From: Isurus oxyrinchus | Lineage: Eukaryota | DNA length: 64,000 bases | Assembly (NCBI GenBank): GCA_026770705.1 | Contig: JANJGN010000006.1 | Span: 72,540,001-72,604,000, forward strand | Reading direction: 5' to 3' | Shown here: piece after piece, positions 16,490 through 62,326 of the stretch | How positions within the stretch are numbered: position 1 is the first letter of the stretch | Layout: each line of letters begins with the position of its first letter | Program-made: the position numbers and the translations under genes | The notes under the pieces: model-generated | Databases searched by the model: none | The model's input: only the letters and a program-made list of their open reading frames with translations | Told to the model about the DNA's origin: nothing

Positions 16490-18385
16490 CTGAGTACAGA
16501 AGGTTCAGAGGACAGGTGAAAAAGCAAATAAGAGAAGCAAAACGGGATTATGAGAAAAGACTGGCAGTTAACATTAAGAGAAATCCCAAAGTCTTCTACA
16601 GGCATATAAATAGTAAAAGGGTGGCAAAAGGAGGAATAGGACTGATTAGGGACCAAAAACAGGATTTACACATGGAGGCAGGGGGCATGGCTGAGGTGTT
16701 AAATGAATACTTTGCATCTGTCTTTACTAAGGAAGCAGGCGCTCCCAAGGCCATGGTGACAGAGGAGGAAACTCTGTCACTGGGAGGCTTCAAAACTGAT
16801 AAGGAGGAGCTATTGGATGAACTGTTGGTACTTAAAGTTGACAAGGCACTGGGACCAGATGAGATGCATCCAAGGATATTGAAGGAAGTGAGAGTGAAGA
16901 TTGCAGGGACTTTGACCATAATCTTTCAGTCTTCCCTAGACTCAGGGGAGGTGCCAGAGGACTGGAGAATTGCAAACATTGCACTTTGTTCAGAAAAGGT
17001 TGTATGGATTAGCCCAGCAATTACAGACCAGTAAGTTTAACTTCAGTGGTGGGGAAGATTCTAGAAATAATTATTTGGGATAGAATTAATAGTCACATGG
17101 GTTGATTAGGAAGAGCCAGCGTGGACATTTTAAGGGAAAATCATGTTTAATTAACTTGCTGGATTTTTTGAAGAGGTAAAAAAGGGGGTTGATGAGGGTA
17201 ATGCTATGGATGTGGTGTACATGGACCTCCAAAAGGCATTTGATACAATGCCGCACAACAGACTTGTGAGAAAAGTTATAGCTCATGCAATCAAAGGGGC
17301 AGTAGTAAAGTGGATACAAAATTGGCTGGGTAATAGGAAAAGCGAGTAATGGTTAATGGATGTTATTTGGGCTGGAGGAATGTTTTTGATGGAGTTCCTC
17401 AGGGGTTGGTATTGGGACCCTTGCTTTTCCTGAAATATATTACTGATCTAGACCTTGGTGTGCAGGGGACAATTTCAAAATTTGCAGGTGATAAAAAACT
17501 TGGAAATGTTGTAATTTGTGAGGAGGACAGTGTAGAAATTCAAAAGAACATAGACAAGTTGGTGGAGAGGGCAGATAGGTGGCAAATGAAGTTCAATGCA
17601 GAGAATTATGAGATGATTCGTTTTGGTAGGAAGAACATGGAGAGACAATATAAGACAAGGGGTACAACTCTAAAGGGTGTGCAGGAGCTGAGGCACCTGG
17701 GTGTATATCTGCACAAGTCATTAAAAGTGGCAGGACAGGTGGAGAGAGCAGTTATTAAAGCATACAGTATCCTAAGCTTTATTACTAGAGACTTAGAGTA
17801 CAAGAGCAAGGAGATTATACTGAACTTGTATAGGACACTAATCAGGCTTCAGCTGGAGTATTACGTGCAGTCCTGGGTGTCACACGTTAGGAAGGATGTG
17901 AGTGCATTGGAGAGAGTGCAGAAGAGGTTTACAAAAATAGTTCCAGAGATGAGAAACTTCAGTTATGAAAATAGATTGAAGATGTTGGAACTGTTCTCTT
18001 TGGAGAGGAGAAGGCTAAGAGGAGATTTGATAGAGGTGTTCAAAATTGTGAGGGGGCTGGGCAGAGTAGATAGGGAGAAACTGTTCCTGTTTGTAAAATA
18101 ATCAAGAACGAGAGGGCACAAATTTAAAATGATTTGCTAAAGAAGCAAATGCGATGTGAGAAGAACCTTTTAACACAGCGAGTGGTTCGGGTCTGGAATG
18201 CATTGTCTGGAAGTGTGGTGGAGGCAGGTTCAATCGAGGCATTCAAGAGGGCATCAGATGATTATTTAAATAGAAACAACATGCAGGGTTACAGTGAAAA
18301 GGCAGGAGAATGGCACTGAGTCATAATGCTTATTCAGAGAGCTGATGGGCAAAATGGCCTCCTTCTGCACCATAACATTCTGTAA
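16490..18385 (+). mobile_element. CR1 LINE, 5'-truncated ORF2 (RT) pseudogene with 3' UTR
   Basis: IKRNPKVFYRHI..KALGPDEMHPRILKE..VPEDWRIANI; GVPQGLVLGPLLFLKYI..SKFAGD; LERRRLRGDLIEVFKI; tail ggcctccttctgcaccataacattctgt. Confidence 0.95.
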
Positions 18386-21848: not shown

Positions 21849-22557
21849 ATTACGCAGCTTCCATGACTTTGATAGAAATCTTTGAGAAAAGTAAATAACA
21901 GCTGAAGGAAAGGAGGGTATGAAATTGTTTCCTCCAGGACTTGGTCATAATTTTTGGGTAATCTAGATATTGGAACAAAGTCAGCTTCTTGTGACTAATA
22001 CAGTGTTTACAGAGAATACACCTCAGGAAGGAATCTGATCGGTTTCATTCCAGGAATAGTTAAGAGCAGCCCTGCCACTGGCAGTGAAAGCCAAGGATGT
22101 TTAAAATTTTTGTGTCACTAGCTCCTTTCTTTTATGTGCAGGAGATAAATGTTAGACAATTTTCTACACACCGATGCACTGCAATATTGCTGAAATCACT
22201 GATGCCCAATTTTAGCACAACAGGAGGTACATCCCTGTCAAAAGAGGGAAGCTAGAACAGCAAAGGCAAACTCAACTCTTTAATTGGTGTGGCAACCCCA
22301 TGGTACAGGACCTTCCCTACTAATTAATTCAGCAAGCATTCATGCCCCTGTGGAAAATAAAGTAACAATCCTAAAGAGTAAAGGAAATTATGGTCTTAAC
22401 ATGCAGCTAGCCTGTGACCACAAAAATGTCAATGCTTGAAGGGAACTTAGAGACCATAGCATTCCTATGCACCAGATGCCCTTGTTCTTCTAGGTTTTGG
22501 AGGTCACAGGTTTACTTTTCTCAAAGATTTCTATCAAAGTCATGGAAGCTGCGTAAT
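21849..22557. repeat. Perfect 47-bp inverted repeat (21849-21895 / 22511-22557)
   Basis: attacgcagcttccatgactttgatagaaatctttgagaaaagtaaa and its exact reverse complement 615 bp downstream. Confidence 0.95.
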
Positions 22558-23204: not shown

Positions 23205-25654
23205 GACATACAAACATATAAATTTGGAGCAGGAGGAGGCCACTGGGCCTCTCGAGCCTGCTCCACCATTCAATAAGATCATGGCTGATCTGAATGTAAC
23301 CTCAACCCCACACTCCTGCCTACCAATGATAACCTTTTACCCCTCTGTTAATCAAGAATCTATCTAGCTCTGCCTTAAAAATATTCAAATACTCTGCTTC
23401 TACCGCCTTTTGAGGAAGAGAGTTCTAAAGCCCCCTGAGAAAAAAAAAATCTCCTAATCTCTGTCTTAAATGACCAACCCCTTATTTCTAAACAGTAACC
23501 CCTAGTTCTAGATTGTCCCACAAGAGGAAGCATCCTCTCCACATCCACCCTGTCAAGACCCCTCAGGATCTTAAAGGTTTCAATTAAATCACCTCTTACT
23601 CTTTGAAATTTCAGTGGATACAAGCCTAACCTGTCCAGCCTTTTCTCATAAGACAAATTGTTCATTCTTGCTATTAGACTAGTAAACCTTCTCTGAACTG
23701 CTTCTAACACATTTACATCTTTCTTTAATTAAGGAGATCAGTACTACACAATGCTCCAGATGTGATCTCACCAATGCCCTGCACAACTGAAGCTTAACCT
23801 CCCTACTTTTGTAATTAATTCCCCTCATAAGTGATAACATTCTATTAGCTTTCCTAATTACCTCCTGTACCTGCATACTAACCTTTTGTGTTTCATGCAC
23901 TAGGATACCCAGATCCCTCTGAATCTCAGAGCTCTGCAATATCTCATCATTTAGATAATAAGCTTATTTTTTATTCTTCCTGCCAAAATGAATAATATCA
24001 TATTTGTCCACATTATACTTCATTTGCCAGATCTTTGCCCATTCACTTAACTTACCTAAGACACTTTGTAGTCTCCATATGTCCTCTTAACAATTTACTT
24101 TCCTACCTATCTTTGTGTCATCAGCAAATTTGGCAACCATTCCTTTGGTCCCTTCATCCAAGTCATTTATATAAATTGTAAACAATTGAGGCCCCAGCAC
24201 TGATCCCTGTGGCACACCACTCATCACATCTTGCCAATTAGAAAAAGACCCATTTATGTCAACTCTCTGCTTCCTGTTAGCTAGCCAATCTTCTATCCAT
24301 GCCAATATGTTACCCCCTACACCATGAGCTTTTATTTTCTGAAATAACCTTTGATGTGGAACTTTATCAAATTCCTTCTGGAAATTTAAGTATGGTACAT
24401 CCACCAGCTCCTCTTTATCCATAGCACATGTGGTTTGTTCAAAGAATACCAATAAATTGGTTAAACATGATTTCGCTTTTACAAAACAATGCAACTTTGC
24501 CTAATTGTCTTGAATTTTCCTAAGTGCCTTGTTATAATATCTTTAATATTAGCTTCTAACATTTTCCCTATGACAGATGTTAGGCTAACTGGCCTATAGT
24601 TTCCTGCTTTCTGTCTTCCTTCCTTTTTGAATAAAGGAGTTAAATTTGTTATTTTCCAATCTAATAGAATCTTCCCCAAATCTAGGGAATTTTAGAAAAT
24701 TAAAACAAGTGCATCAACTAGCTCACTAGCTACTTCTTTCAAGACCTTAGGGTGAAGTTCATCTGGACCTAGGGGTTTGTCAGCCTGCAGCCCCAATAAT
24801 TTGCTCAATACCACTTACCTGGTGATTGTAATTTTCCCAAGTTCCTTCCTCCCTCCCATTTCCTGATTTACAGCTATTTCCCGGATGTTCTTTATGTCCT
24901 TTATAGTGAAGACCGAAGCAAAATACCTGGTTAATTCATTCACCATCTTCTTACTTTCCATTATTAATTCCCCAGACACATTCCCTGTAGGACCAACACT
25001 CACTTTGTTAACTTTTTTCTTATTTGAATATCTATAGAAACTCTTACTATCCATCTTTATATTACTAGCTAGCTTTCTCTGATACTCTAATTTTTCTTTC
25101 CTTAATAATATTTTTGTCATTCTTTGCTGCTCTTTATATTCTTTTCAATCTTCTGACCTGCCACCCATCTATGCAATATTGTATGCTTTCTCTTTGAGTC
25201 TGATACTGTCTTTAAATATTTTAGTTAGCCACGGAAGGTGAGCCCTCCCCTTGGAATTTTTATTTCTCATTGGAATGTATCTATTCTGTGTATTCTGAAA
25301 TATCCCTTTAAATGTCTACCACTGAACTTCTATTGATATGTCCCTTAACCTCATTTGCCAGTTCACTTTAGCTAGCCCGCTTTCATTCCCTCATAATTGC
25401 TCTTCTTTAAGTTTAAAATACTCCTATTGGACGCACTCGTTTCTCCCTAAAATTGAATGTAAAATTCAATCATATTATGATCGCCGCTACCTAGGGGTGC
25501 CTTCACTAGGAGGTTATCAAATAATCCTACCTCGTTGCTCAATGGCAGGTCTAGCATAGACTGCTCTCTGGTTGTCTCCAGAATGTGCTGTTCTAAGAAA
25601 CTATCCCAAAAACATCCTATGAACTCCTCACCTATGCTACCTTTGCTCATCTGG
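23205..25654 (-). mobile_element. CR1 LINE ORF2 pseudogene (end of endonuclease, RT, 3' UTR)
   Basis: PLGSGDHNMIEF (APE end); NYRPVSLTSVIGKMLE; SGVPQGSVLGPQLFTIYINDLD..KFADDTK; RVRGDLIETFKI. Confidence 0.95.
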
Positions 25655-29228: not shown

Positions 29229-31826
29229 TATATCTTTACCTGGGTGTGTTTTTAGCATAATAAAAACTAATTTCTTTGTGTTTAAATTCAAGAAAGCCTG
29301 TTTGTCTGAGCTCTTTTCAATCAGTCTATAAATTGTTATGTACAGGCACTGAATCAATACCTTCATCCTTATAAATTACAAAAAAGCCCTGTTACAATCA
29401 ATTGAACAGTTAGAAAGGAAGGTTGAATTCTGACACATGTCCTCACTGCCTGTAACAATCTTAGGAATAATTCTCAAATTATGCGTAATGCTGTACTGTT
29501 TAATAACGATCAAAGCTAAATGAGTAAATTCTGATGGTAAATGCACCCCCTCAGTCCTCTGAGTGAATAATGATAGTTTAAAATAAATATTCTCTATCTG
29601 TAAGCAAATATGGTACCTTGTGGCACTTTTCAACAATCTGAGTTAATGGGGAGAAATAACTAACATTAACTGACTTTAATCTGGTAGGAAGGTAGACAGA
29701 TTTACAGCAAAGCATGAGGCCATTTGGTCCATTGTGACTCTGCTGGTGGTGTATGCTATGAACAGCAAGAAAGAATCCAATAAACAATCCATCAAAAACA
29801 AAAATGAGTGCTTGTTCACTTGTCCGTTACTTGCAAAACAATCAAATTCAGAAAAGAATCTTGCATTTCACTGGCAATGCGTTAAAATAAATGGGAGAAA
29901 AGAATTAACCTACAATTTTGTAATCGTGCTTCTGCTGGTGTTAGCAAGGATAATCAGATGCACCTTATCAGGGTACAATATATGGTGATTATGTAAATAT
30001 TTTTAACAAGTAATTTTGGATTTTTCTGTTTTCAGGAAAGCGATATTCTATGAAGTTCAGTTTTGTTTTGGAATACTCTGTTCAGTTGACCCAGTTCAAT
30101 CAAGTTGCATTTAAAATTCAGTCCAGGGAACATATTTCTTCTTTGCCGTGACTCAAAGCTTTTGGCTTACTGACAGATTTTCTTTTCTGCTATGTTGCTT
30201 CACTTTTCCCTCAGCACAATGAAGTTGAAATTTCCAGCTTTTTTAAATTTATTTACTTTTACTGCTTGTAGTCCCAAAGTTTCCAGTGGCATATTTCCGT
30301 GGCATATATTTTTGGTAAAAACTCTAACTATAAATTTACAGTTCACTTTTTGAATTTTTTTAACAACTTCATTCCATTTTTACTTATTCTCTCCATTAGT
30401 CTGCTGCTGAGCACTGGAACCCCATTCAATTAAAATATCTGTTCTTCTTCATAAGATATAAGGTAAACTTTTCAAGACTCTACTCCCATTGCAGAGGTTT
30501 ACTTGATGGGAGAGTGAATGGAAAATTGAACAGAGTTAGTTTGCCTCATTCATTATTCACAACTTTACTTTGCTTAAAATAAATCACTGGACATCCAGAA
30601 TCCCATGTTGGGAGTAAAGGCTCCCAAAATTTGCCTTTATTAGTTGGTTCTTATGACATAGTTGTAAATGATTCCTGTAGTGCAATAGTTTTCCAATAAA
30701 GTATGTATAAGGTCAACTGTAATACGCTCCTGCTACCTGTTTTTAAGTTTACTGCAGGAGATATGGAAATCTCCAGGAGCAATGATGAGTTAATTTTCCT
30801 GTAATTAACACTGAAGGAATGGTTATTTTTCAGGAACTGAGCACAGGAAACAGGGCAGTGGCCTTTAATCCTAAGCCTTCATCCTTGATGTTACTCCAGA
30901 ATTCACAGAGGTTTCCCCTAAGGACAGCTGATGACTGCTTGCACCTGCAATTTTTACAGATTGGAGCAATCAATCAGATAAGGCAGGATGGAGCATGCAA
31001 GGCCTTCCACTTCCGTTGCATCCCGGTGCCCAGTTGAGAGTCTCCTGAAGGAGCACACCTTAACAACCTATGCTCAGCCCCAACCTTCAGGGATATTTGG
31101 CTGCTGTCTTTGAAGTTTACATCAGCAATTAACTTTCGCCTCTACATCCAGGCGTTAGTCCCTGCCAAATTGCGAGGCTATACCAGCACAATCAACAAGT
31201 CCATCACATTTGTGTGTCCTGAGGTTTGGACAATGTAGTAAATTTCTGGCCTGCTGATTTAAAAATTCATTGGTGATATGCCAGTTTCACAGATGTAATA
31301 CAAGCGCTTAAGTGTCCAGTACGGCAGACAGTGTGCACACAAATATTCAGCACTGGAGGTGGCTGTCAGTCATTTTGGGAAAGATTCCTTTGTAAAAGGA
31401 GCCTGAGCTTGGCCATAGTGGATTTGCATATGCAAATAGGGGGCTTAACGCTTGTTCCTGACTGCCTTAACAAAATTTGTCTGTGACTGACCACAACCTG
31501 AGCTGTACAGACTGTGGCCAATATTCTCTGGCACTGGAAAGTTGAACTAACAGCCCTTAAAGAGACTTTTCTTCCCCAAAAATATACTTTGTTCATAAAA
31601 TTTTTAAAAGCACATTACAAAACATTCTGATTTCAAAATTATAGAAAGTGCAATAAAATTCGACTTGTCTCCATACAGCATGTTGCACTCTGAGATGCTT
31701 CAATACAATTTCAATACTCTTGATATTCACAATAAACATTCAATGTCAGGCATATAGCCTGCGGGACAAAAACAGAATTACCTGGAAAAACTCAGCAGGT
31801 CTGGCAGCATCGGCGGAGAAGAAAAG

Positions 31827-31865
31827 AATTGACATTTCGAGTCCTCATGACCCTTCGACGGAACT
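31827..31865 (-). ncRNA. Hammerhead ribozyme-like motif (variant core)
   Basis: Reverse complement agttccgtcgaagggtcatgaggactcgaaatgtcaatt; mirror of 35106-35144. Confidence 0.55.
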
Positions 31866-32271
31866 AGGTGAATCCAAGGAATGGGTGAAATATAAGCTGG
31901 TTTAAGGTGTGTGTGTGTGTGTGTGGGGGGGGGGTGTTTGGGTGGGGGGGAGAGAAGTGGAGGGGGTGGTGTGGTTGTAGGGACAAACAAGCAGTGATAG
32001 AAGCAGATCATCAAAAGATGTCACAGACAACAAAACAAAAGAACACATAGGTGTCGAAGTTGGTGATATTATCTAAATGAATGTGCTAATTAAGAATGGA
32101 TGGTAGGGCACTCAAGGTATAGCTCTAGTGGGGGTGGGGGAGCATAAAAGATTTAAAAATATTTAAAAATAATGGAAATAGGTGGGAAAAAGAAAAATCT
32201 ATATAATATATTGGAAAAAAACAAAAGGAAGGGGGAAGAAACAGAAAGGGGGTAGGGATGGAGGAGGGAGG

Positions 32272-33875
32272 TCAAGACCTAAAGTTGTTGAATTCAATAC
32301 TCAGTCCAGAAGGCTGTAAAGTGCCTAGTTGGAAGATGAGGTGTTGTTCCTCCAGTTTGTGTTGGGCTTCACTGGAACAATGCCGCAAGACAAGGACAGA
32401 CATGTGGGCAAGAGAGCAGGGTGGAGTGTTGAAATGGCAAGCGACAGGGAGGTTTGGGTCATTCTTGCGGACAGACCGCAGGTGTTCTGCAAAGCGGTCG
32501 CCCAGTTTACGTTTGGTCTCCCCAATATAGAGGAGACCACATTGGGAGCAACGAATGCAGTAGACTAAGTTGGGGGAAATGCAAGTGAAATGTTGCTTCA
32601 CTTGAAAGGAGTGTTTGGGCCCTTGGACAGTGAGGAGAGAGGAAGTGAAGGGGCAGGTGTTACATCTTTTACGTGGGCATGGGGTGGTGCCATAGGTGGG
32701 GGCTGAGGAGTAGGGGGTGATGGAGGAGTGGACCAGGGTGTCGCGGAGAGAACAATCCCTACGGAATGCCGACAGTGGGGGTGAAGGGAAGATGTGTTTG
32801 GTAGTGGCATCATGCTGGAGTTGGCGGAAATGGCGGAGGATGATCCTTTGAATGCGGAGGCTGGTGGGGTGATAAGTGAGGACAAGGGGGACCCTATCAT
32901 GTTTCTGGGAGGGAGGAGAATGCATGAGGGCGGATGCGCGGGGGATGGGCCGGACACGGTTGAGGGCCCTGTCAACGACCGTGGGTGGAAAACCTCGGTT
33001 AAGGAAGAAGGAGGACATGTCAGAGGAATTGTTTTTGAAGGTAGAATCATCGGAACAGATGCGACGGAGGCGAAGGAACTGAGAGAACGGGATGGAGTCC
33101 TTACAGGAAGCGGGGTGTGAGGAGCTGTAGTCAAGGTAGCTGTGGGAGTTGGTAGGCTTGTAATGGATATTGGTGGACAGTCTATCACCAGAGATTGAGA
33201 CAGCGAGGTCAAGGAAGGGAAGGGAAGTGTCAGAGATGGACCACGTGATAATGATGGAGGGGTGGAGATTGGAAGCAAAATTAATAAATTTTTCCAAGTC
33301 CCGACGAGAGCACGAAGCAGCACCGAAGTAATCATCGATGTACCGGAGAAAGAGTTGTGGGAGGGGGCCGGAGTAGGACTGGAACAAGGAATATTCCACA
33401 TACCCCATAAAGAGACAGGCATAGCTGGGGCCCTTGTGGGTACCCATAGCCACACCTTTTATTTGGAGGAAGTGAGAGGAGTTGAAGGAGAAATTGTTCA
33501 GTGCGAGAACAAGTTCAGCCAGACGGAGGAGAGTAGTGGTGGATGGGGATTGTTCAGGCCTCTGTTCGAGGAAGAAGCTAAGGGCCTTCAGACCATCCTG
33601 GTGGGGGATGGAGGTGTAGAGGGATTGGACGTCCATGGTGAAGAGGAAGCGGTTGGGACCAGGGAACTGGAAATTGTTGAAGTGGCGTAAGGTGTCAGAG
33701 GAATCACGGATGTAGGTGGGAAGGGACTGGACAAGGGGAGAGAGAAGGGAGTCAAGACAATGAGAAATGAGTTCTGTGGGGCAGGAGCAAGCTATCACGA
33801 TTGGTCTACCGGGACAGTTCTGTTTGTGGATTTTGGGTAGGAGGTAGAAGCGGGCCGTCTGAGCTTGGGCGACTA
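32272..33875 (-). CDS. Penelope reverse transcriptase + GIY-YIG endonuclease (5'-truncated, uninterrupted frame)
   Basis: RFYLLPKIHK..PGRPIV..TMDVQSLYTSIP..GVAMG..RYIDD..FLD; C-terminal VYCIRCSQCGLLYIGETKRKLGDRFAEHL; the ORF-track start codon lies across the inversion junction. Confidence 0.9.
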
Positions 33876-35105
33876 GCTTCCTCTTTACCATGGATGTCCA
33901 ATCCCTCTACACCTCCATCCCCCACCAGGATGGTCTGATGCTACCTTCAAAAACAGTTCCTCTGACATGTCCTCCTTCTTCCTTAACCGAGGTTTTCCAC
34001 CCACGGTCGTTGACAGGGCCCTCGACTGTGTCCGGCCCATCTCCCGCGCATCCGCCCTCACGCCTTCTCCTCCCTCCCAGAAACATGATAGGGTCCCCCT
34101 TGTCCTCACTAATCACCCCACCAGCCTCCGCATTCAAAGGATCATCCTCTGCCATTTCCGCCAACTCCAGCATGATGCCACTACCAAACACATCTTCCCT
34201 TCACCCCCACTGTCGGCATTCCGTAGGGATTGTTCCCTCCGGGACACCCTGGTCCACTCCTCCAACACCCCCTACTCCTCAGCCCCCACCTATGGCACCA
34301 CCCCATGGCCACGCAAAAGATTTAACACCTGCCCCTTCACTTCCTCTCTCCTCACCGTCCAAGGGCCCAAACACTCCTTTCAAGTGAAGCAACATTTCAC
34401 TTGCATTTCCCCCAACTTAGTCTACTGCATTTGTTGCTCCCAATGTGGTCTCCTCTACATTGGGGAGACCAAACGTAACTGGGCGACCACTTTGCAGAAC
34501 ACCTGCGGTCTGTCCGCAAGAATGACCCAAACCTCCCTGTCGCTTGCCATTTCAACACTCCACCCTGCTCTCTTGCCCACATGTCTGTCCTTGTCTTGCG
34601 GCATTGTTCCAGTGAAGCCCAACGCAAACTGGAGGAACAACACCTCATCTTCCGACTAGGCACTTTACAGCCTTCCGGACTGAATATTGAATTCAACAAC
34701 TTTAGGTCTTGACCTCCCTCCTCTATCCCCACCCCCTTTCTGTTTCTTTCCCCTTCCTTTTGTTTTATTCCAATAAATGATATAGATTTTTCTTTTTCCC
34801 ACCTATTTCCATTATTTTTAAATATTTTTAAATCTTTTATGCTCCCCCACCCGCACTAGAGCTATACCTTGAGTGTCCTACCATCCATTCTTAATTAGAA
34901 CATTCATTTAGATAATATCACCAACTTTGACACCTATGTGTTCTTTTGTTCTGTTGTCTGTGACATCTTTTGATGATCTGCTTCTATCACTGCTTGTTTG
35001 TCCCTACAACCACACCACCCCCCTCCACTTCTCTCCCCCGACCCAAACCCCCCCTCCCCTCCACCTTAAACCATCTTATATTTCACCCGTTCCTTGGATT
35101 CACTT

Positions 35106-35144
35106 AGTTCCGTCGAAGGGTCATGAGGACTCGAAACGTCAACT
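35106..35144 (+). ncRNA. Minimal type I hammerhead ribozyme-like motif (variant core)
   Basis: AGUU-CCGUCGA-A-GGGUC-augag-GACUC-GAAAC-GUC-AACU: stem I, stem II, GAAA and GUC site present; core deviates from CUGANGA at two positions. Confidence 0.6.
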
Positions 35145-35809
35145 CTTTTCTTCTCTGCCGATGCTGCCAGACCTGCTGAGTTTTTCCAGGTAATTCTGTT
35201 TTTGTTTTGGATTTCCAGCCTCCGCAGTTTTTTGTTTTTATATAGCCTGCGGGATTCTACAAACAGTCCTTATGAGACTATGAGAGGCAGTCTCTTGAAG
35301 GTAAGTTTATATCATTTTTAATTACCTTATTGTCAACCCAGAGTGCTCTTTTCTGCTTCACAGTAATTTTGCAGGTTGCTGCTGGTCAACACTCATGTTA
35401 CTTACCACCTTGGCTGGTGGCAGTTGGCAGATTTATATTCTTCCTGAAACTGGCAAGCTGCATCTGGGTCAATGACTGGCACTCAGCAGAAGCAAACAGT
35501 TGGGGTTGATTGACCATTTTTGCATGATTCTACCATCAACATCATTGGGCACATTCCGTTGCATTGCACAAGAATTGCACACCAACCCTGCTGCAATCCA
35601 ATTTCCAGGCTTCTGTTTCTCTCCAGCACTCAAGATGGGGTGGAGATGGTACAGGAAAATCAGCACCACAATCTGGGAAATATGCCTGTATGCCCAAAGA
35701 TATTCTGGCGAATTCTTCAATCTAATATTGCTGGACATTTTATTCATCCTGACTGGCCTTATTAAAAAATATGAAAGTAACAGCTCACATTAAATGTCTT
35801 TCAATAGAC

Positions 35810-36007: not shown

Positions 36008-39000
36008 TGTAATAAACTTTGGGATGCAGAGCAGGTTTCTTATAAGAAACAGTAAACTTTATTTACAGATTCCAGATGAGTCTTCGTACTTGGTCCAAGA
36101 CCAGGACTAAAAAACTCCGCTCCTAAGATTCCACTGCATTTAGGGATGATTAGTCTATACAGCCACATGATCCCCATAACAGTAAGAAATGGTTTAACTT
36201 ATAATTACTACATTCCTCCCCCTTTAATTTTGTTTTACCCTCTTATTTACAAAAATATCTTAACCCATATTAAATACAATTATGTACAGTTCATGCAATT
36301 ATAGATTTAGTCTTCGAGGAGGTTTTTGGATTTGGATAGAGCGACAAAACTCTACAACTAGAGGTTCTTCCATTGGATCAACTTGAACAGGAGCTGCAGC
36401 TTCAGAGACATCCCTAGTCAATGGCAGTTCAGAATTATTTACTTCAACAGGGACTTCTGGCATGTCTATTCTTTGTCAATCTGGCACCTCAGGAGTCAGT
36501 TTCGGCTTCAGGTGGATTAATTGGTTGTTGGAAGGTTTAAGATGATCCACATATTTCCTAACAATCCTGTTTTCCACTTCAACTTGATAAGGTAAAGGTC
36601 CTGTTCCAGAGAAGATTGTACCAGGGACCCATTTCGGTCCAGTTGCAAAATTTCATACAAAAACTGTCTCTCCCACAGTAAACTCTTGACCTTTACTGTG
36701 AACGTCATGATTCACTTTCTGACTACCCTGGTTTCTCCCCACTTCCCCTCTAAATTAGGGAATACTACAGTCAATCTTGAATGAAGTCAATGCTTCATTA
36801 ACAACTCTGAAGGTGTTAAACCAGTGGTCGCGTGCAGAGTTGTGTGATAGCTGAACAGGAATCCCGAAATTCACATTTATAATGTTCCCTCTGATAATTT
36901 CTTCATGCCTGTTTTACTGCTCTTTCTGCTAACCCATTAGAAGAGGGATGGTACGATGCTGTTCTGACGTGTTTAATCCCATTTAGGTTCAGGAATCTTT
37001 GGAATTCAGTGCTAGTGAAAGCCATACAATTATCTGACATGATAACTTCGGGTAAACCAGAAATACTTAAACTCTGGCACAGTTTTTCAATGGTTGCAGA
37101 CGAAGTAGGTGATCTCACCTCAAACGCGTCCATCCATTTGGAATGTGCATCGATTATCACAAGAAACATGTTACCTAAAAATGGACCTACATAATCTATA
37201 TGTAGTCTAACCCAGGGTCGACCAGGCCACTCTCTCGGATGCAGGGGAGTTGAAAAAGGCAACTTCTGCTATTGCTGACACTGGAGACAGTGTTTAACCA
37301 TTTATTCTATATTAGTGTCTGTACCTAGCCACCAGATATAAATTTGTGCAAGCATCTTCATTTTTGAAATACCAGGGTGTGCACTATGAAGTTCATCTAA
37401 TAATGGTTCTCTTCCTTGGACAGGGTCAACGACTCTTGCTCCCATAACAAGATGCCATCTTGACAACTCAGTTTGGATCTACATACAAAGAATGGTTTCA
37501 ATTCTTCAGGAACTTGTGTATTTGACCACCCTTGTAATACTCGTTCGCGGACACTTGCTAAAATTGGATCCCTATTTGAACAATTCTTTAACTGTCTTGT
37601 GCAGACTGGTGAGGAGCCTAGGACCTTCAATGCAAGTACTATCTCTTGAGGTACTGGAACATGTGTAATACTATCTGGCAAAGAGAGATGACTGAGGGCA
37701 TCTGCATTTGCTATATGTGCACCAGAACGGTGCATAAAAGTGTACTTGTATGCCAATAAATTTAAAGCTCATTTTTGAATTCTAGCAGAGGCTATCGTTG
37801 GGATTGCCTCATCTTCACTAAACAACCCTAACAGTGATTTGTGATCTGACACTATGGTGGAGATCAAATATTGATGGAACTGTTTTACTCCAAATAGGAT
37901 AGATAAGCCCTTTTTTCAATCTGTGAATATCCTTTCTCCACTGCAGAAAAGGTTCTGGACACATATCCTGTAGGCTTTTCAGATTTCATTTCTGTTGTTT
38001 TTCTTGTGTTAGCCACAAGGTTTCATCTCATCTTTCATTTTGATTTTGCATTCGGCCACATTTCTCTCGGGTGAAATCTTAACTTGTTTCAATTCGGGGG
38101 TTGAGTTATTCATTTGCATCTTGGAAAGTTCCATGATTTTTCCTCCTAATGCCTCCTTTGTCTCGATCAACCAATTCCTCAGTTCTTCTGTCTCTCTTTT
38201 GTAACTATTGGCTTCCGCTTGGAACACCAAACACTTGGTTTTTTTCTTCAACCGTTTCTTCAGTTGGTTCAGATGGCACTGGATTTGTTTTGCTTCTTTC
38301 CCTGATTTTCCCATGGAACCAACTCTGACCTGAGGGATCCTTGCTTCCTGTGAAGGTCCTTTGTTTTTTCTATCTCATTCCAAAAGACACCATCACATTC
38401 CCTTGTCAATTTCTGCTCCTGAACTGAGAAATTTCTGACCAAGTTAGCTTGATTTCTTTCAACCAATCATGGCCTAGAGACTTGGTCCTTCTCCTGTTAT
38501 TGGTAGCTGGGCTGTCTGTTGCCTGAATATTACAGGTCCTGAGGTAATGCCTTTCACCTGTATTGCTTCTCCTGTTTATGTTTTTAACTGAGCAGCCGTT
38601 TTCTCAAAACTCAATGGCTGGGTACCTTCTCTGAGATATTTAAAGATGTGTTCTCCCGCCACTGTGGTCGATGCGCCTGTGTCAACTTCCCTGAGCAGAG
38701 GCTTTCCATTTACTTGAAGTGTAACAGTTTTCCTGGCCTTCAGATGGTGTAGGAAATAAACATCAGCGCTCAGTAACTTCTGACTCATCTATATTGTGCA
38801 CTTCATTTAACTTGACTTGTTGTCTGAATGGCTGCCTTGATTGAGTCCTGTAGTGTTTAACAACATGCCCTTTTTTGTGCCAGTAGTGGCATTCTGCCTC
38901 TTTAAATCTACAAACTTCGGGTACATGATTTCCCCCACAACAGTAACACTTTAAATTCTGGATTACTGGTGAGCTGATTCGAGCATTTCTTTTTGCTTTT

Positions 39001-40219: not shown

Positions 40220-41070
40220 GGAGGCAAATCAGAGATTGGGGGCTAGGCAACTGAAGGCACAGCCACCAATGGTGGAGTAATTATAATTGGGAAATGACAA
40301 GAGACCAGATTTAGAGCAGCATGGATATCTCAGAGGATTGTTGGGTTGGAGGTCATTATAGTGATAGGGTTGGACAAGGCGATGGAGGAATTTGAACACA
40401 AGGATGATAATTATAAAATCATGGTGGTGCATAACTGGAAGCCAGTGTAGATCAATGAGCATAGAGTGATAGAGGAATGAAATTTGCAGTGAGTTAAGAC
40501 AGAGGCAGTAGAGTTTTGGATGACCTCAAGTTTACGAAGGTTGGAATGTGGGAGTCCAGCCAGGAGTGAATTGGAATTGATGAGTTTAGAGATAAAATAA
40601 GGCATGAATGAGGGTTTCAGCAGCAGATGAGCTGAGATGGGGTGAAGTCAAATGATGTTATGGAGATGAAAAAGGTGGTAGTAGTGATGGCATGGTTAAG
40701 ATGTCGGAAGCTCAGGTCAGGATCAAATGTGACACAAAGGTTGCTAACAAACAGACTTAAGCTGAGAGAGGAATGGAGTCGATAGCAAGGGAGCAAGAGT
40801 TTGGTTTGGGGACCGAAGCTGTCTTACGAATATTTAATTGGTAGAAATATCTGCTCGTCCAGTGCTTCATGTTGGACAAGCAGACTGATAATCTAGAAAC
40901 AGTGGAGGAGTCAAGAGAGGTGGTGGTGAGGTACAGCTGGGTGCTGTTAGCATAAATATGAAAACTAATGCTGTGCCTTTGGATGATGTTGTCATGGGAG
41001 GGCATGTGGATGAGAAATATGTGGAGTCCAAGGAAAGCTCCTTGGAGGACACCAGAGGTAACAGTGCAAA
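40220..41070 (-). mobile_element. L2 LINE RT/C-terminal fragment
   Basis: SFHIYANSTQLY (YADDTQLY), NSLLAGLP..KLEVIQNSTA, DLHWLPV..LVFK. Confidence 0.9.
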
Positions 41071-41264
41071 TACTTACAAGAACAAATACTTAATTCTATT
41101 CATTTTTACATGAAGCCTTGAACCAATGGAGCTCAATGTGCATTAATATCAATTAATCTGCATTCTTTCAAAGGTTGTTCCTTATTTTGTTCTTTTTTTG
41201 TGACTGCTGGAGTTTTAGTTTTGTTTACACTGCTATGAACAATGATTCACTCTTGTCTTTCTGT

Positions 41265-41803: not shown

Positions 41804-43297
41804 ATCAAGTATGCAACTTGCTAAAGACAAGTGTTTGTGCCAAAAATAATTAAACTCCTGAACCTACTCAAAAGCTATGCACTCATCCAGTAGAAGGGAA
41901 AGTAAGATTAAGGCAACTAGACATTTAGCTGGACAATATTTATTAGAAACCTCCCTGAAACTAGGCCTTAATTAAATTTGAATTGTAAGGGTAGTTCATC
42001 CAATAGCTATGTAGTTGGAGATGAATCTCTTTAGATAGGCAAAATGCTTTCTCTTAAGTTGATTGTAGGTATTTTAACTTGCTTTTGTCTTATCAAGAAA
42101 ATATGTATTTTTGCAGTTGCTAAATTCTTATAAATATTCACTCTTCTTCTAAAGCTTAGGTGCAAATTTGCATCAGAGCATTTTGGGTGAACTCCCAGTA
42201 CACTATTAACAATTAAACATAAGTTTGTGTGCATGCTCGATTGGTTAAATCCTCAGTCCTTAAAGGGACCACTGAAGGCAGCCTCCTGTAAGGTAAATTT
42301 TTATTTCTTTTACTTAACTTATTGTGGAGCACAGAATAAATAGAATGAAAATTACAAGCTGTCTTAATAAATTAGAACCAATATGGTAGCTAGTTAGCTA
42401 GGTAGACACAAACTCCATTAACCTTCTTTTATTGATTTTATAACTGGGGAAATGACTTAAAGAGTGGCTGTACATTCTTAATGCTGGGATCATTTAGCTT
42501 TGTAAAACATGCTGGCAAAGAAACAGCAGCAAACTGCAATTACCTTAACCCTTTATAAATGTATGGGGTTATTAAAAATAGTTTCAGAGAAGACAAAATT
42601 ATGTTAAAAGCTACAGGAAACAGCTGATAAAAGAATGATATGAAGTGCGTTTCTCAGAGATACTGATCATCACAAATAGTTACTTTGACATCCATCATAC
42701 TCATTGGAAATGGCAATATGTCTAAAAGAGACTAAGGTGATTTTTTTTACATGGTACAGTAGCTAAACTGGCTTGAGTCCATGTCTATGTATTATTTTTT
42801 TCCTATAATGGAAATGACTGAACAGAAACATTGCATTGATTCTCCCTTCCTCTGTGGTTTGGATCTTCTCCCATGTGCACAGTTAAGGGATAAAAAGATT
42901 TTCTGCCCATTCTCTGACACACATTGTTAATGTTTTGCTCAATGTAAGCATTGTGTTCTTATTTGGCTGCACTGGCAGACTGCAGAGCACTTAGTTGCAA
43001 CTTGAGGAATGTGCATCTGATGACAATGGAGGTGCTTACTTCAAACATTGCTCTTGCAATACATGTGCAGTTAGATGGACATCAGGAGGAAGCCATCACA
43101 AAAACAAAAGGCAGCATTGCAGCTTTCCTATTGATTGCTGACTTAAGCAATGCTGTGAATGTGAAGCTAGTTAGAATATGTATGGTCTCACAGTACAGGC
43201 CCATGTGTATACTCTGCTGATTGTTAGGCCTTGAAATAATACACTGGCAGTGACAATTAAGGCAATGCCTGCACTGTGCCCTAAAAGTAAACATGTA

Positions 43298-48508: not shown

Positions 48509-49369
48509 TTAGTTGGGTTCGAGTTTTTAACCTCCTTGGGTCTAAGTTAAAAGTATTTACACTGTACTTCGAGTTAAATGAAAATAAACTGGACTAGGTA
48601 GTTTAGATGTAAACTGCACTTTCACTTTTAATAAAAAATATACTTCAAGATACTGGGATCAATATCCTGAAAGAATATGCATCTGAGGCATCAGGCAAAT
48701 TCATAACCCTTCACCTTAACTCCTCATCATTGAATCAACTGGAATTTACCACCCAGTTTATGCCAAGGAGTTAATGATAACTAAATTTGGCTTGCTGAAT
48801 TGTCTTGCATCAACCAACTTGGAGTATATAAGGATGGAGGAGAGAGTTCATGGTCTGAAATTGTTGAACTCAATATTAAGTCCATAAAACTGTAAAGTGC
48901 CTAGTCGGAAGATGAGGTGCTGTTCCTCCAGTTTGCGTTGAGCTTCACTGGAACAATGCAGCAGGCCAAGGACGGACATGTGGGCATGAGAGCAGGGTGG
49001 AGTGTTGAAATGGCAAGCGACAGAGAGGTCTGGGTCATGCTTGCGGACAGACTGAAAGTGTTCCACAAAGCGGTCACCCAGCCTGCTTTTGATCCCTCCA
49101 ATGTAGAGGAGACCGCATTGGAAGCAGCGAACGCCACAGACTAAATTGAGGGAAGTGTAAGTGAAATGCTGCTTCACTTGAAAGGAGTGTTTGGGCCCTT
49201 GGATGGTGAGGAGAGGGGAAGTAAAGGGGCAGGTGTTGCACCTTCTGCAGTTGCATGGGAAGCTGCCGTGGGAGGGGTTTGAGGTGCAGGGGGGTGATGG
49301 AGGAGTGGACCAGGGCGTCCTGGAGGGAACGATCCCTGCAGAAAGCCGCCGGGGTTGGGTCGGGGGGAT

Positions 49370-49397
49370 GGGGGGGGGGGGGGGGGGGGGGGGGGGG
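49370..49397 (+). repeat. Poly-G run (28 nt)
   Basis: Direct reading of the sequence. Confidence 0.9.
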
Positions 49398-51951
49398 TGA
49401 AGGCAAGATGTGTTTGGCGGTGGCACCATGCTGGAGTTGACAGAAATAGAGGCGGATGATCCTTTGAATGCGGAGGCTGGTGGGGTGATAAGTGAGGACA
49501 AGGGATAAGTGAGGACATGTTTCTGGGAGGGAGGAGAAGGCGTGAGGGCGGATGCACGGGAGATGGGGCCGGACACGGTTGAGGGCCCTCTCAACCACTG
49601 TGGCTCGAAAACCTCGGTTAAAGAAGAATGAAGACATGTCAGAGGAACTGTTTTGGAAAGTGGCATCATCAGAACATATGCAACAGAGGCGAAGGAACTG
49701 AGAGAACGGGATGGAATCCTTACAGGAAGCAGGGTGTGAGGAGCTGTAGTCGAGGTAGCTGTGGGAGTCGGTGGGTTTGTAATGGATATTGGTGGACAGT
49801 CTATCACCAGAGATTGAGACTGAGAGGTCAAGGAAGGGAAAGGAAGTGTCAGTGATGGACCATGTGAAAATGATGGAGGGGTGGAGATTGGAAGCAAAAT
49901 TAATACATTTTTCCAGATCCAGATGAGAGCATGAAGCGGCACCAAAGCAGTCATCGATGTACCAGAGAAAGAGTTGTGGCAGGGGGCCTGAGTAGGACTG
50001 GAACAAGGAATGTTCCACAAACCCCATACAGATGCAGGCATAACTGGGGCCCATGCGAGTACCCATAGCCATACCTTTTATTTGGAGGAAGTGAGACGAT
50101 TTTAAGGAGAAATTGTTCAGTGAGAGAACAAGTTCAGCTAGACAGAGGAGAGTAGTGGGGAATGGGGATTGTTCAGGCCTCTGTTCGAGGAAGAAGCGGA
50201 GAGCCATCAGACCATTCTGGTGGGGGATGGCGGTGCAGAGGGATTGGATGTCCATGGTGAAGAGGAGACTGTTAGGGCCAGGGAACTGAAAATTGTTGAT
50301 ATGATGTAGGGCGTCAGAGGCGTCGTGGATGTAGGTGGGAAGAGACTGGACAAGTGAGAGAGAATGGAGTCAAGATAGCAAGAAATAAGTTCCATGGGGC
50401 AGGAACAGGCTGACATGATCAGTCTGCCGGGAAAGTCCTGTTTGTGGATTTTGGATAGGAGGTAGAAGCGGGCCGTCCAAGGCTGGGAGACTGTAAGGTT
50501 GGAAGCTGTGGAGGGAAGATCTCCAGAGGAGATGAGGTCAGTGACAGTCCTGGAAACAATGGCTTGATGTTCACTAGTGGGGTCATGGTCCAGGGGGAGT
50601 TAGGAGGACGTGTCTGCGAGTTGATGCTCAGTCTCTGTGAGGTAGAGGTCAGTGCGCCAGAAAACAACAGTACCACCCTTGTCAGCAAGTTTGATGACAA
50701 AGTCAGGATTGGATCTGAGAGAACGGTGTGAGGCAAGTTCAGAAAGAGACAGGTTAGAGTGGGTGAGAGGAGCAGAGAAATTGAAACGTGACATCAGTCG
50801 TCTCAATTTCTCTGGTCCCCTCTAACCTCGACTACAGCTCCTCACACCCCGCTTCTTGTAAGGACTCCATCCCATTCTCTCAGTTCCTTCGCCTCCGTCG
50901 CATATGTTCTGATGATGCCATTTTCCAAAACAGTTTCTCTGACATGTCTTCCTTCTTCCTTAACTGAAGTTTTCCACCCACGGTGGTTGACAGGGGCCTC
51001 AACCGTGTCCAGCCCATCTCCCGCGCATCTGCCTCACACCTTCCGCTCCCTCCCAGAACCCTGATAGGGTTCCCCTTGTTCTCACTTATCACCCCACTAG
51101 CCTCCGTGTTCAAAGGATCATCCTCCTCCATTTCTGCCAACTCCAGCATGATGCCACCACCAAACACATTTTCCCTTCAACCCCCCGGCGGCTTTCCGTA
51201 GGGATCGTTCCCTCCGGGACGTCCTGTTCCACTCCTCAACCCTCTCCCGCGTTACCTTCCCATGCAACCTCAGAAGGTACAACACCTGCCCCTTTACTTC
51301 CCACACCCCCCCTCCCCCCCACCGCCCAAGGGCCCAAACGCTCCTTTCAAGTGAAGCAACTTGCGCAAGCATGACCCAGAACTTCCTGTCGCTTGCCATT
51401 TCAACACACACCCTGCTCTCATGCCCACATGTCCGTCCTTGACCAGCTGCAATGTTCCAGTGAAGCTCAACGCAAACTGGAGGAACAGCACCTCATCTTC
51501 CGACTAGGCACTTTACAGTCTTATGGGCTTAATATTGAGTTCAACAATTTCAGATCATGAACTGTCTCCTCCATCCCCACCCCCTTTCCGATCTCTCTTT
51601 TTCCAATAATTTATAATTTTTTACAACTATATTTTTTTTCTTTTCCTTCCTTTTTTTAAATTTATTTCAAGCTTTTGTTTCATTTCTATCCTTTAAGCCC
51701 AATTTAATCCCTTCCCCCCAACCCACCCTCACTAGGGCCATCTGCCACTAGCTTATCCTGCTTGCTACCCTTAATGTCCCCATTATCATAAGCTTTAGAT
51801 AATATCACCACCGTCAACACCCTTTTGTCATTCTGTAGATAACATCTTTGGCAATCTCTTCTTGGCCTCCACCTATCACTGGCCCCCTATCGAGCTCTTC
51901 TCTCCCACCCCCTTCTACCAGCTTATATTTCATCTCATTCCTATATGTCTT

Positions 51952-51990
51952 AGTTCAGATGAAGGGTCATATGGACTTGAAACATCAACT
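51952..51990 (+). ncRNA. Hammerhead ribozyme-like motif
   Basis: AGUU-CAGAUGA-AGGGUC-auau-GGACUU-GAAAC-AUC-AACU; one core mismatch. Confidence 0.55.
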
Positions 51991-52267
51991 GTATCCCTCT
52001 TCACAAATGCTGTCAGACCTGCTGAGTTTTTCCAGGGATTTTTGTTTTTGTTCTCAGCCAAATAAGCTTGTTCATTTGACAAACAAATCCCACCCTATTA
52101 TTAAAAATCTTAATCCTTTTCTTTTTACAGAAATCTATTAAATGCCTCAAGTCTATTCCATTCCTTCAAAGGCCTTCATTGATGATTTGATTCATAAAAA
52201 CTATATTCATTCAGTACAAGAGTTTTGGCTACCTTCCTTCCTCACTCCTAATTTTCTGATTTTGTTC

Positions 52268-53669: not shown

Positions 53670-56600
53670 GAAAATCCCTGCACCTTTATATTGAGTGCAA
53701 CCTTATTTCAGGACCGGTTACTGTAGGAATTGTCCCTAGTTTCCCTGTCAATGGGATCAACCTGCTTCTAGGTAATAGCATAGTGTGAGCTAAGGTGGTA
53801 GCTTCCCCAGTGCTCTTAGAGAGAATGGATGAGGTCAGGGAGCTAGAGCAATTACAGGAGAATGTTCCTGTAATTTTCCCTGACTGTGTGGTAACCTAGT
53901 CCATGGCCAAACAAGCTCTGTCTGAGGAGGCTGCACTGGCACTGCACATGGATGACTCTGCTGCAGCCTGACTATCCAAAACTTTATTCAGACATTTAGA
54001 TGAGCCAAAGAAAGTATTAAGCAGGTTTTCCTTGGTCGGGGGCTCAACAACTGATCCAGTGTTAAAAAAAAGTTAGCAGAGACTGAAGTTGAAGTGGAGA
54101 GAGATCCAGAGTGCTACTATTTAAAGAACAACACTCTGATGAGGAAGTGGAGTCCCCTCATAGTCCTGTGGGTGAAGAGTGGACAGTGGCCCATCAGGTA
54201 GTAGTGCCTCCTAGATCATGTAGGGTACTATTTTGGATTGCCCATGAAATTCTAATGGCTGGACATGTCGGCATCTGAAGAACCGAAGCCTGCATAACCA
54301 GCATATTTATTGGCACACCTCCACAAGGATGTAATGGATATCTGTAAAACTTGCCACACATGCCAGGTTGTGGGGAGCCCCACCCTGCAATAAAGCCTGC
54401 TCCACTAATTCCCATATCAGCTATTGGCGAACCATCCAGCAGAGTGTTGGTGGATTGTGTGGGAACCCTACCAAAAATGAAAGGGGCCTATCAATATCTT
54501 CTTACTATCATGGATGCGGCCATCTGATTTCAAAAGACCATTCCCCTGAAAACTATCGCAACCAAAGCAATTCTTTACCCGATATGGGCTGCCTACTGAG
54601 GTTCAATTGGATCAGGGCACAAATTTTTTGTCCAGTAGTTTTCAAAATGTCATGAGTAACCTGGACATAACACAACTAAAATCCTCAGCCTATCATGCCC
54701 AGTTTCAAGGGGCTTTGAAATGATACCACTGGACCCTGAAGCCAATGACCAGGTCATACTGCTATGAGGACCCCCATGGCTGGGATTCCTCCTATTTGCT
54801 GCCAGGGGTTCACTACATGAGTCCACTGGTTTTAGTCCCTTTGAATTAGTTTCTGGGCTTGAGGTGAAATGTCCCCTTAAACTAATCAAGGAGATGGCTT
54901 TAGAGCAAAGGGAAAATACTTCCTTGTTGGTCTGTGTGTCTGTGTTCCATGTGCTATGGCTCAGGAACATCTTAAAACCTCAATTGTGAAAAGGCAGGCT
55001 GGTCGACATGTCAAAACCAGAACATTAAAGGAGACCAAGTGCCAGTGTTACTGTATTTAGGGGACGACCCGCTGAAAGCCAAGTTGAGTGGCACATACAG
55101 TGTAGTAAAGAGTATTGGTGAAGTCAATTATTTAATTGACACCCCAGACCATGAGAAAAAGCAAAGGCTGTGTCATGTCAACATGTTAAAACAATATTAC
55201 AATCAGGAAGGGGACAAACAAATGCATTTATGCCGGGTCTGAAGAAGGGACATGTGGATTTGAAATGTTTATTTCTCCACAGACACTGCTAGGCATGCTG
55301 AGTTGTTCCACAATTTTCTGCTTTTGTTTAAGATTTCCAGCATCTGCAGTTTTTTGCTTTTATCACAGATATGCCAGGTAGTGAGGAAAGAGGAGGATGA
55401 AAGGAACAGTGAGGACGAGCTAGAGGGAGAAGGAAGCCTGGATAATTCCCAAATTGAATTCCCTACCGTCAGATTAGCTGACACTGAATTGCTAGGGAGG
55501 CTGGACACCATGCTCTCTTATTTAGGTGCAGAGCAGAGAGGAGACATAACAAAGTTGCTTGCAGCATTTAAAGAGATCTGTAGGGACAAGCCAGGATGCA
55601 CGACCCTAAACGTACATGATGTAGATGTAAGAGAGACAGTAAAGCAAAATTCCTATGTTCCAAGAAATTGACTCAGGCTTGGGAAGAAATTAAGTGCATG
55701 CTGGAGCACCACTTGATTAAGTCCAGTCACAGCAGCTGGAGTTCTCCAGTTGTACTCGCGCCCAAGCCCGAAGGCTTAATAAGGCTCGACTGATTACAGA
55801 AAAATTAATGCAGTGCCAAAGCTGACTCCTACCCGATCCCTCGCCTGGCAGACTATATTGACAGAGTAGGAAACTCCACTTACATCACACAAATAGACTT
55901 GTTAAAAGTGTATTGATAATTAAGTTCGCCTCACTACCCGAGCTAAGGAGATCTTGGCTTTCATCAAACTAGAAATTTTACTCAAATACTGAGTAATGCC
56001 ACTTGGGTTACAAAATGGTCCAGCCACCTCCCAAAGGCTGGTGAACCAGGTAACTGTGTACTGTACCTGGATGATCTTACTTGTATACAGTGATACCTGG
56101 AGGGCCTAGGTAGATCAGTTAGAAGTCTTCTTCCGAAGGCTACAGGCTGCTGATCTAATGGTAAATCTTGCAAAGAGAGAGTTCGCTAAAGCTCAGGTAA
56201 CTTACCCAGGGCAAGTTGTGAATTAAGGGTGGGTGTAGCCAGGGCAGCGAATGTACAGATGTTGGTTGATTTCCCTGATCAAACAACTAAATGGGAAATA
56301 ATGCAATTTTAGGGATGCGTTGGTTCCATTTCACATTCATGCCAAACTTCAATGCTTTAGCCATCCCGCTGACAGACCTGCTACAGAGAAAAGCAAATGT
56401 AATGTGGTCTGAGTGGTGCCAAACATTTTTTGAGCTGCTGAAAGCCATATTAACCAATGGACTGTTAACCAACCCTTTAAAGGGGCAATCGATGCTAGTG
56501 ACATAAGGCTAGTGGCAGTCCTCTTGCAGAATGATGGATCAGGCATTGAAAAACTGATAGGGTATTTTTCAAACTAAATTGAACAGGCAGCAAAAGGGGA

Positions 56601-60869: not shown

Positions 60870-62326
60870 AATATGCTCAATGATGGGCGAGCCCAGCACA
60901 TCAGTGCAAAAGATAAGGCTGAAGCATTTACAACATTCTTCCGCCAGAAGTGCCGAGTGGAAGATCCATCTCGGCCTCCTCTGGAGGTCCCCAGCATCAC
61001 AGATGCCAGTCTTCAGCCAATTCGATTCACTCCACGTGATATCAAGAAATGGCTGAAGACACTGGATACTGCAAAAGCTATGGGCCCTGACAAGATTCCA
61101 GCAATAGTACTGAAAACTTGTGCTCCAGACTTGCCACACCCCTAGCCAAGCTGTTCCAGTACAGCTACAACACCAGTTATGTGGAAAATTGCCCAGGTAT
61201 GTCCTGTACACAAAAAGCAGAACAAATCCAACCTGGCCAATTACCACCCTATCAGTCTACTCTCAATCATCAGTAAATTAATGTCAGGGGTCATCAACAG
61301 TGCTATCAAGTGGAACTTGCTTTGCAATAACCTTCTCACTGACACCCAGCATGGGTTCTGTCAGGGTCACTCAGCTCCTGAACTCATTACAGCCTTGGTT
61401 CAAATATGGACAAAAGAGTTGAACTCAAGAGTTGAGGTGAGAGTGACTGGCTTTGACATCAAGGCAGCATTTGACTGAATGTGACATTAAAGAACCCTAG
61501 CAAAACTGGAGTCAATGGCAGTTAGGGTGAAAACTCACTGCTGGTTGGAATTCAAGCCACACAAATGCCAGGCAATGACCATCTCCAACAAGAGATGGCC
61601 CAACCATTGCCTCTTGACATTCAATGACATTACCATCACTGAATCCCCAACTACTCACATCCTGGGGGCTACCATTAACCAGAAACTGAACAGGAATAGC
61701 CATATAAATACTGTGGCTACAAGAGCAGGTCAGAGGCTAGGAATCCTGTGGTGAGTAACTCACCTCCTGACTCCCAAAAGCCTGTCCACCATCTACAAGG
61801 TACAGGTCATGAGTGTGATGGAATATTCCCCACTCACCTGGATGAGTGCAGCTTCAACAACACTCAAGGAGCTTGACATCATCCAGGACAAATCAGCCCA
61901 CTTGATTGGTACCCCATCCACAAACATTCACTCCCTCTACCGCCGACGAATAGTGGCAGTAATGTATCCAAGCTACAAGATGCTATGCAGGAACTCACCG
62001 AGGATCCTTAGACAGCACCTTCCAAACACAAGACCAATTCCATCTAGAAGGACAAAGGCAGCATACACATGGGACCATCACTGCCTGGAAGTTCCTCTCC
62101 AAGTCAGTCACCATCCTGAATTGGAAATATATCACCGTCCCTTCACTGTCACTGGGTCAAAAACCTGGAATTTCCTCCCTAACAGCACTATGGGTGTACT
62201 TATATAGCATGTACCACAGCAGTTCAAGAAAGCAGCTCACCACTACCTTCTCAAGGGCAGCTAGGGATGGCAATAAATGCTGGCCCAGCCAGCGAAGCCC
62301 ACATCCCATGAATGAATAAAAAAAAA
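60870..62326 (+). mobile_element. LINE (CR1/L2 group), 5'-truncated with internal deletion
   Basis: KAMGPDKIPAIVLKTCAPDL; WKIAQVCPVHKK..NYHPISLLS..DIKAAFD; tail caataaatgctggcccagcc..atgaatgaataaaaaaaa. Confidence 0.9.

Follow-up and report, generated by a model that had tools for sequence, protein, structure and literature searches.

The locus at 31752-35254 of the window (the whole 64,000-nt stretch of Isurus oxyrinchus DNA that was analysed) consists of two truncated copies of a Penelope-like element (PLE) lying head to head within one 15-bp target site duplication (TSD), and is now a dead relic. Head-to-head arms bounded by a single 15-bp TSD had been claimed in a sequence-only reading of this DNA; the layout was confirmed and the TSD is exact. 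The parts of the insertion are the following.

31752-31766, no strand: left copy of the TSD, ATATAGCCTGCGGGA, an exact match to the right copy.
31767-33875, minus strand: long (left) arm, a 5'-truncated PLE of 2,109 nt that ends at the short 3' terminus of the family and has no tail.
32272-33873, minus strand: ORF remnant of 533 stop-free codons, with RT (YIDD), CX4CXXC linker and GIY-YIG endonuclease with an internal CxxC; the N-terminal part is missing.
33050-33587, minus strand: 538 nt kept in the left arm and absent from the right arm.
33651-33875, minus strand: 5' portion of the left arm, 225 nt, with no counterpart in the right arm.
33875/33876, no strand: head-to-head junction, blunt, with neither overlap nor added letters.
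33876-35239, plus strand: short (right) arm, a truncated PLE of 1,364 nt that carries the tail.
33876-33938, plus strand: RT stub of the right arm, 63 nt, ending in the TGA common to the resumption point.
33939-35204, plus strand: body of the right arm, with thumb, linker, endonuclease and 3' UTR/pLTR.
35205-35239, plus strand: PLE tail, 35 nt, confined to the right end and finishing at the long terminus of the family.
35240-35254, no strand: right copy of the TSD, ATATAGCCTGCGGGA, an exact match to the left copy.

The 15-mer of the TSD has only these two occurrences within the window, and the longest run in common in a random control of 293 pairs of 41-mers was 9 nt. The first two letters of the right copy may double as the last two of the family, since loose read ends start behind 35241.

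Alignment of the arms (31767-33049 on the minus strand against 33936-35204 on the plus strand) revealed 44 substitutions at 1,268 aligned sites (3.5%), 14 of them at CpG sites, together with 4 gaps, in agreement with the scattered substitutions and small indels over about 1.3 kb of common sequence that had been noted before. A CA/C-run expansion at 31899-31975, in the 3' UTR of the left arm, explains the 13-nt gap of the left arm with respect to the right one. The stub of the right arm equals 33650-33588 of the left arm save for 2 of 63 letters, and after it the right arm resumes at the equivalent of 33049, the resulting gap of 538 nt having TGA on both sides. These measurements sharpen the previous description of about 60 nt of RT followed by a skip of about 540 nt. 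A 1-nt frameshift was located near 34476, in the endonuclease of the right arm. The tail had been attributed to both arms, and this had to be corrected: the left arm reaches only as far as the equivalent of 35204, 35 nt short, and 35205-35239 are found in the right arm only. The tail sits on the short arm, from which 763 nt of the long arm are absent.

That one integration made both arms, as had been proposed, is supported by the single TSD, by three rare letters common to both arms and by flanks that align to one older paralogous repeat. Among the 40 listed of 433 differences from the family majority, 9 lie in the shared arms, 5 of them private to one arm and 4 common to both, and at three of these four common departures the majority letter is missing from only 1.4-2.6% of the X24 reads. 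Common rare letters could likewise stem from gene conversion between the arms. The rebuilt empty site aligned across the TSD to the older repeat near 42130-42336 with a score of 88, and none of 54 controls scored above 47. This signal comes mostly from the right flank, which none of 956 controls reached; by itself, the left-flank match is weak, being reached locally by 9 of 956 controls, and an anchored left-flank test, with a segment picked after the fact, was reached by 0 of 968 controls. The target itself (31600-31751 and 35255-35345, with its paralog at 42130-42336) is an older dispersed repeat, with some 360 X24 reads over 31695. A possible exon, 63 stop-free nt flanked by AG and GT and spanning the rebuilt empty site, was rejected, because the site matches this dispersed repeat.

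Four of the 24 matching public sequencing runs were aligned to 31200-35800 at 90% likeness. Contigs X1 and X8 extend beyond the right flank and enter the tail with 26 and 23 element letters, respectively, below the bridging standard of 31 element letters; there being one such contig for each of organisms A and B, the insertion seems to be present in both. Among the records listed from the four runs, none, be it read or contig, crosses the centre or the left junction, and none represents an empty allele. The flanks of organisms A and B differ at 25 of 986 sites, so the divergence of the arms is of the order expected for both arms aging in place.

In the raw reads of organism B, the depth was about 9,600 in a bin that only the left arm possesses versus a mean of 0.27 in five flank bins, which places the copy number of the family at the order of 10^4, the flank depth being noisy. 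Family reads break into unrelated sequence at 35208 (4,050 X24 reads) and at 35241 (9,955 X24 reads), and these two recurrent 3' ends match those of the arms, the right arm ending at the 35241 break and the left arm 4 nt before 35208. Loose read ends at 33875 indicated that family sequence continues past the 5' limit of the left arm, and family contigs continue normally before 33936 among the matches listed. Of 1,667 joints, 15 were listed. Each of these 15 couples a copy on the minus strand with one on the plus strand, from which it follows that the family often forms head-to-head units, and 14 of them are situated close to the pLTR, at differing positions. These 15 of 1,667 joints gave no sign of a deleted subfamily. 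The pattern of the 538-nt deletion junction gave 0 matches in metagenome contigs, where shark DNA is unlikely and the result has little weight.

The ORF of the left arm encodes RT followed by a C-terminal GIY-YIG endonuclease, as in EN+ PLEs. Both Pfam matches, RVT_1 (E 5.7e-5) and GIY-YIG (E 3.2e-4), were just short of the Pfam cut-offs, and alignment with homologs of 800-890 residues placed the start of the left arm inside RT. The linker between RT and endonuclease is CPRKRCNTC (residues 399-407), and the CCHH motif of EN+ PLEs is represented by LVYCIRCSQCGLLYIG at residues 436-451 with the conserved H464 and H480. A protein search yielded 1,370 homologs at E<=1e-20, and the combination of a CX4CXXC linker with a CxxC inside GIY-YIG was present in 106 of the 120 listed. 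The nearest named ones are elasmobranch proteins (Rhincodon, Hypanus, Chiloscyllium and Stegostoma), with 59-65% identity, and many unnamed and invertebrate homologs are near 50%, so that a shark or ray is the probable host. The search of PDB sequences gave no relative, its lone match (E 0.31) being unrelated, and that of metagenome proteins gave two distant loci (40-45% identity), both without long inverted arms.

According to the available text of PMC8557442, a CX2-5CxxC linker marks Neptune/Nematis and is missing in Penelope/Poseidon. By this motif the element would be classified as Neptune/Nematis-type, and the label Penelope given to it earlier does not apply in the sense of Penelope/Poseidon proper. 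The linker and the CxxC within GIY-YIG are both held in common with Neptune/Nematis PLEs, a likeness based on motifs. Our literature search found no paper on Neptune Penelope-like elements in sharks, and the family may be unnamed in the literature searched; in the part available of a preprint (10.64898/2026.07.22.740005), Neptune and Poseidon are described as widespread across vertebrates.

A hammerhead ribozyme motif in the pLTR is a feature of EN+ PLEs. The focal pLTR at 35107-35143 (plus strand), with a mirror near 31828-31864, holds a candidate for a degenerate minimal hammerhead-like motif, picked out by eye against the consensus. Rfam gave no match at E<=1 over 30000-56000, and none of five folded pLTR stretches beat its shuffles, no stable fold being seen. 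Upstream of it, before 35106, letters are loose in 9,267 X24 reads, and most of the head-to-head joints listed resume at 35106-35115. A PLE 3'-end piece of about 120 nt at 55244-55363, 73% identical, starts at the hammerhead-like motif and has the tail at its end.

The layout of the focal insertion is an ordinary one among published PLE insertions, and hence a known kind of structure. The earlier remark that inverted 5' segments are known in PLEs holds, as this layout is described in the sections seen of PMC3846280 and PMC8557442. In EN+ PLE units (Craig et al. 2021, PMC8557442), an inverted 5'-truncated copy adjoins the 5' end and a tail of 30-40 bp is often found at one end only. The focal locus is alike in joining a truncated and an inverted truncated copy, so that the terminal repeats come from a truncated second copy and the unit lies inside a TSD, in its 35-nt tail at the right end only, with two family termini in the reads, and in its C-terminal GIY-YIG with CCHH. 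It differs from the units as described there in that neither arm is full length, no direct pLTR lies upstream and the inverted arm extends into RT. The Pen2/Pen2a elements of Adineta vaga (Arkhipova et al. 2013, PMC3846280) are reported as inverted-pLTR units inside TSDs of 9 and 10 bp with a 31-bp tail, and are like the focal copy in having inverted pLTRs in one TSD and the tail at one end; one derivative has an internal microhomology deletion, to which the focal gap is comparable. However, the focal TSD is of 15 bp, its arms are of 1.3 kb instead of about 200 bp, and its centre is blunt and without palindrome, unlike that reported for Pen2/Pen2a. Inverted pLTRs are treated as a routine curation feature in the text available of PMC8969392. 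A single dead copy in a standard layout, from a family of some 10^4 copies, has little weight alone. The large size of the family, its two sharp termini and the variation of its centres make it well suited to testing the mechanism across the genome.

As for the origin of the insertion, we lean towards a single event that produced a Neptune-type PLE and its inverted copy together, reverse transcription having been primed by both target strands after nicking. The anatomy, the TSD, the asymmetry of the tail, the family termini and the common rare letters are direct observations, from which we infer the order of events and the mode of priming. The endonuclease of the element would nick the two strands 15 nt apart, within the older repeat. 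One target 3' end would prime at the outer start site of the RNA, giving the right arm with its tail, and the other at the inner start site, giving the left arm without it; the templates would be two separate RNA molecules, or else two units within a single tandem RNA. Joining of the incomplete cDNAs at their 3' ends would follow, and the 538-nt gap would form at the TGA microhomology, either during joining or later. A template jump at joining and a later microhomology deletion appear about equally probable as its cause.

The components of this scheme have been reported for Poseidon PAc of Anolis carolinensis (Frangieh et al. 2024, PMC11167929). In the available sections of this paper, the anole protein is reported to cut both strands of the target in vitro and to extend each of them, beginning at either of two RNA positions between which the tail lies; the dimer is predicted only. 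Two start sites plus extension on both strands would lead to two outward 3' ends, one tailed and one tailless, that is, to the focal layout, and two recurrent 3' ends bounding the tail are likewise seen in the focal family. PAc belongs to the Penelope/Poseidon clade and is without the CX2-5CxxC linker that the focal element has; that the in vitro work concerns a Poseidon and not a Neptune element, with a dimer that is only predicted, weakens the case for two-strand priming of the focal copy. How PLEs build inverted units is stated as unresolved in the text seen of PMC8557442, and one locus cannot settle it.

It is possible, although doubtful, that the same single insertion proceeded by fold-back, the tailed first cDNA (right arm) having folded on itself and been copied into the left arm. 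With the tail on the short arm and 763 nt extra in the long one, a single fold-back alone cannot give the present arms, and an unstable palindrome would later have had to lose at least 225 nt at its centre and 538 nt in the right arm. The focal copy would thus have undergone two subsequent deletions, and a further, separate cut would be needed to place the end of the left arm at the short terminus of the family; besides, the focal centre shows no overlap. What speaks for fold-back is a second head-to-head copy, 13 kb off at 48829-52052, which belongs to a related subfamily and shares 84% identity with the focal left arm. Its centre (50765-50822) is a near-perfect palindrome with 24-nt arms, a 10-nt loop and a 2-nt CG overlap, which is the geometry expected from fold-back self-priming and therefore counts against two-strand priming. 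Its right arm consists of a short stub followed by a 998-nt gap at an ACCT microhomology, with a further gap near 51358; the left arm is without 3' UTR, and the search for a TSD at 48829-52052 found none. In the available parts of PMC3846280, junction palindromes are taken as self-priming and microhomology deletions are reported in PLE copies, and long inverted repeats with short spacers are described as unstable in those of PMC7999016. A stub beside the centre followed by a microhomology-bounded gap of 0.5-1 kb was found in both long head-to-head copies of the window (2 of 2). It may be a footprint of joining or the decay of unstable inverted repeats as described in PMC7999016. That it is a regular footprint of PLE cDNA joining, by a last template jump or a templated bridge, and not later decay, seems to us rather unlikely; if true, two-strand priming and fold-back could be told apart with genome data, given the high copy number of the family.

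Single insertion with priming from both strands, our preferred reading, was also weighed against three further explanations. Two independent insertions, or recombination of two copies, could have met head to head by chance, as the family is abundant and the arms are 3.5% apart. Nevertheless, one exact TSD encloses both arms, which share three rare letters, the flanks are collinear with one paralog, and the arms have diverged to an extent comparable to that of the flanks between the two organisms A and B (25 differences at 986 sites), so this coincidence is very improbable. A false inversion in the assembly would agree with the centre or the whole stretch being spanned by no record among those listed. 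It is hardly credible, given that 44 substitutions and 4 gaps separate the arms, that the TSD is exact, that the arm ends coincide with real family termini and that contigs from two organisms pass from the right flank into the tail. Finally, the locus could have been kept since read-through makes a hairpin RNA serving as endo-siRNA or ADAR substrate. Such pairing is physically possible, the longest perfect run between the arms being 134 nt, and yet we give this function hardly more chance than the artefact: many such joints exist in the family, so the focal copy is not special; no Pfam host-gene domain above cut-off was found in 148 of the 169 ORFs of at least 75 aa that lie outside the two PLEs, a search that misses short exons; and the RNA-like runs, available as contigs only, contain 21-39% of the words, a share for which copies of the family could account.

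Repeats abound in the window, several of them as diverged pairs. The Pfam matches above cut-off outside the two PLEs were to RT and integrase domains. Integrase-core and integrase C-terminal fragments, probably from LTR retrotransposons, lie at 36906-37268 (minus strand) and 54976-55239 (plus strand), and further RT fragments at 17337-18098, 24090-24500, 40760-41089 and 61146-61475. In addition, a perfect 47-bp inverted repeat (21849-21895 and 22511-22557, about 615 bp apart) possibly represents the ends of a small DNA transposon.
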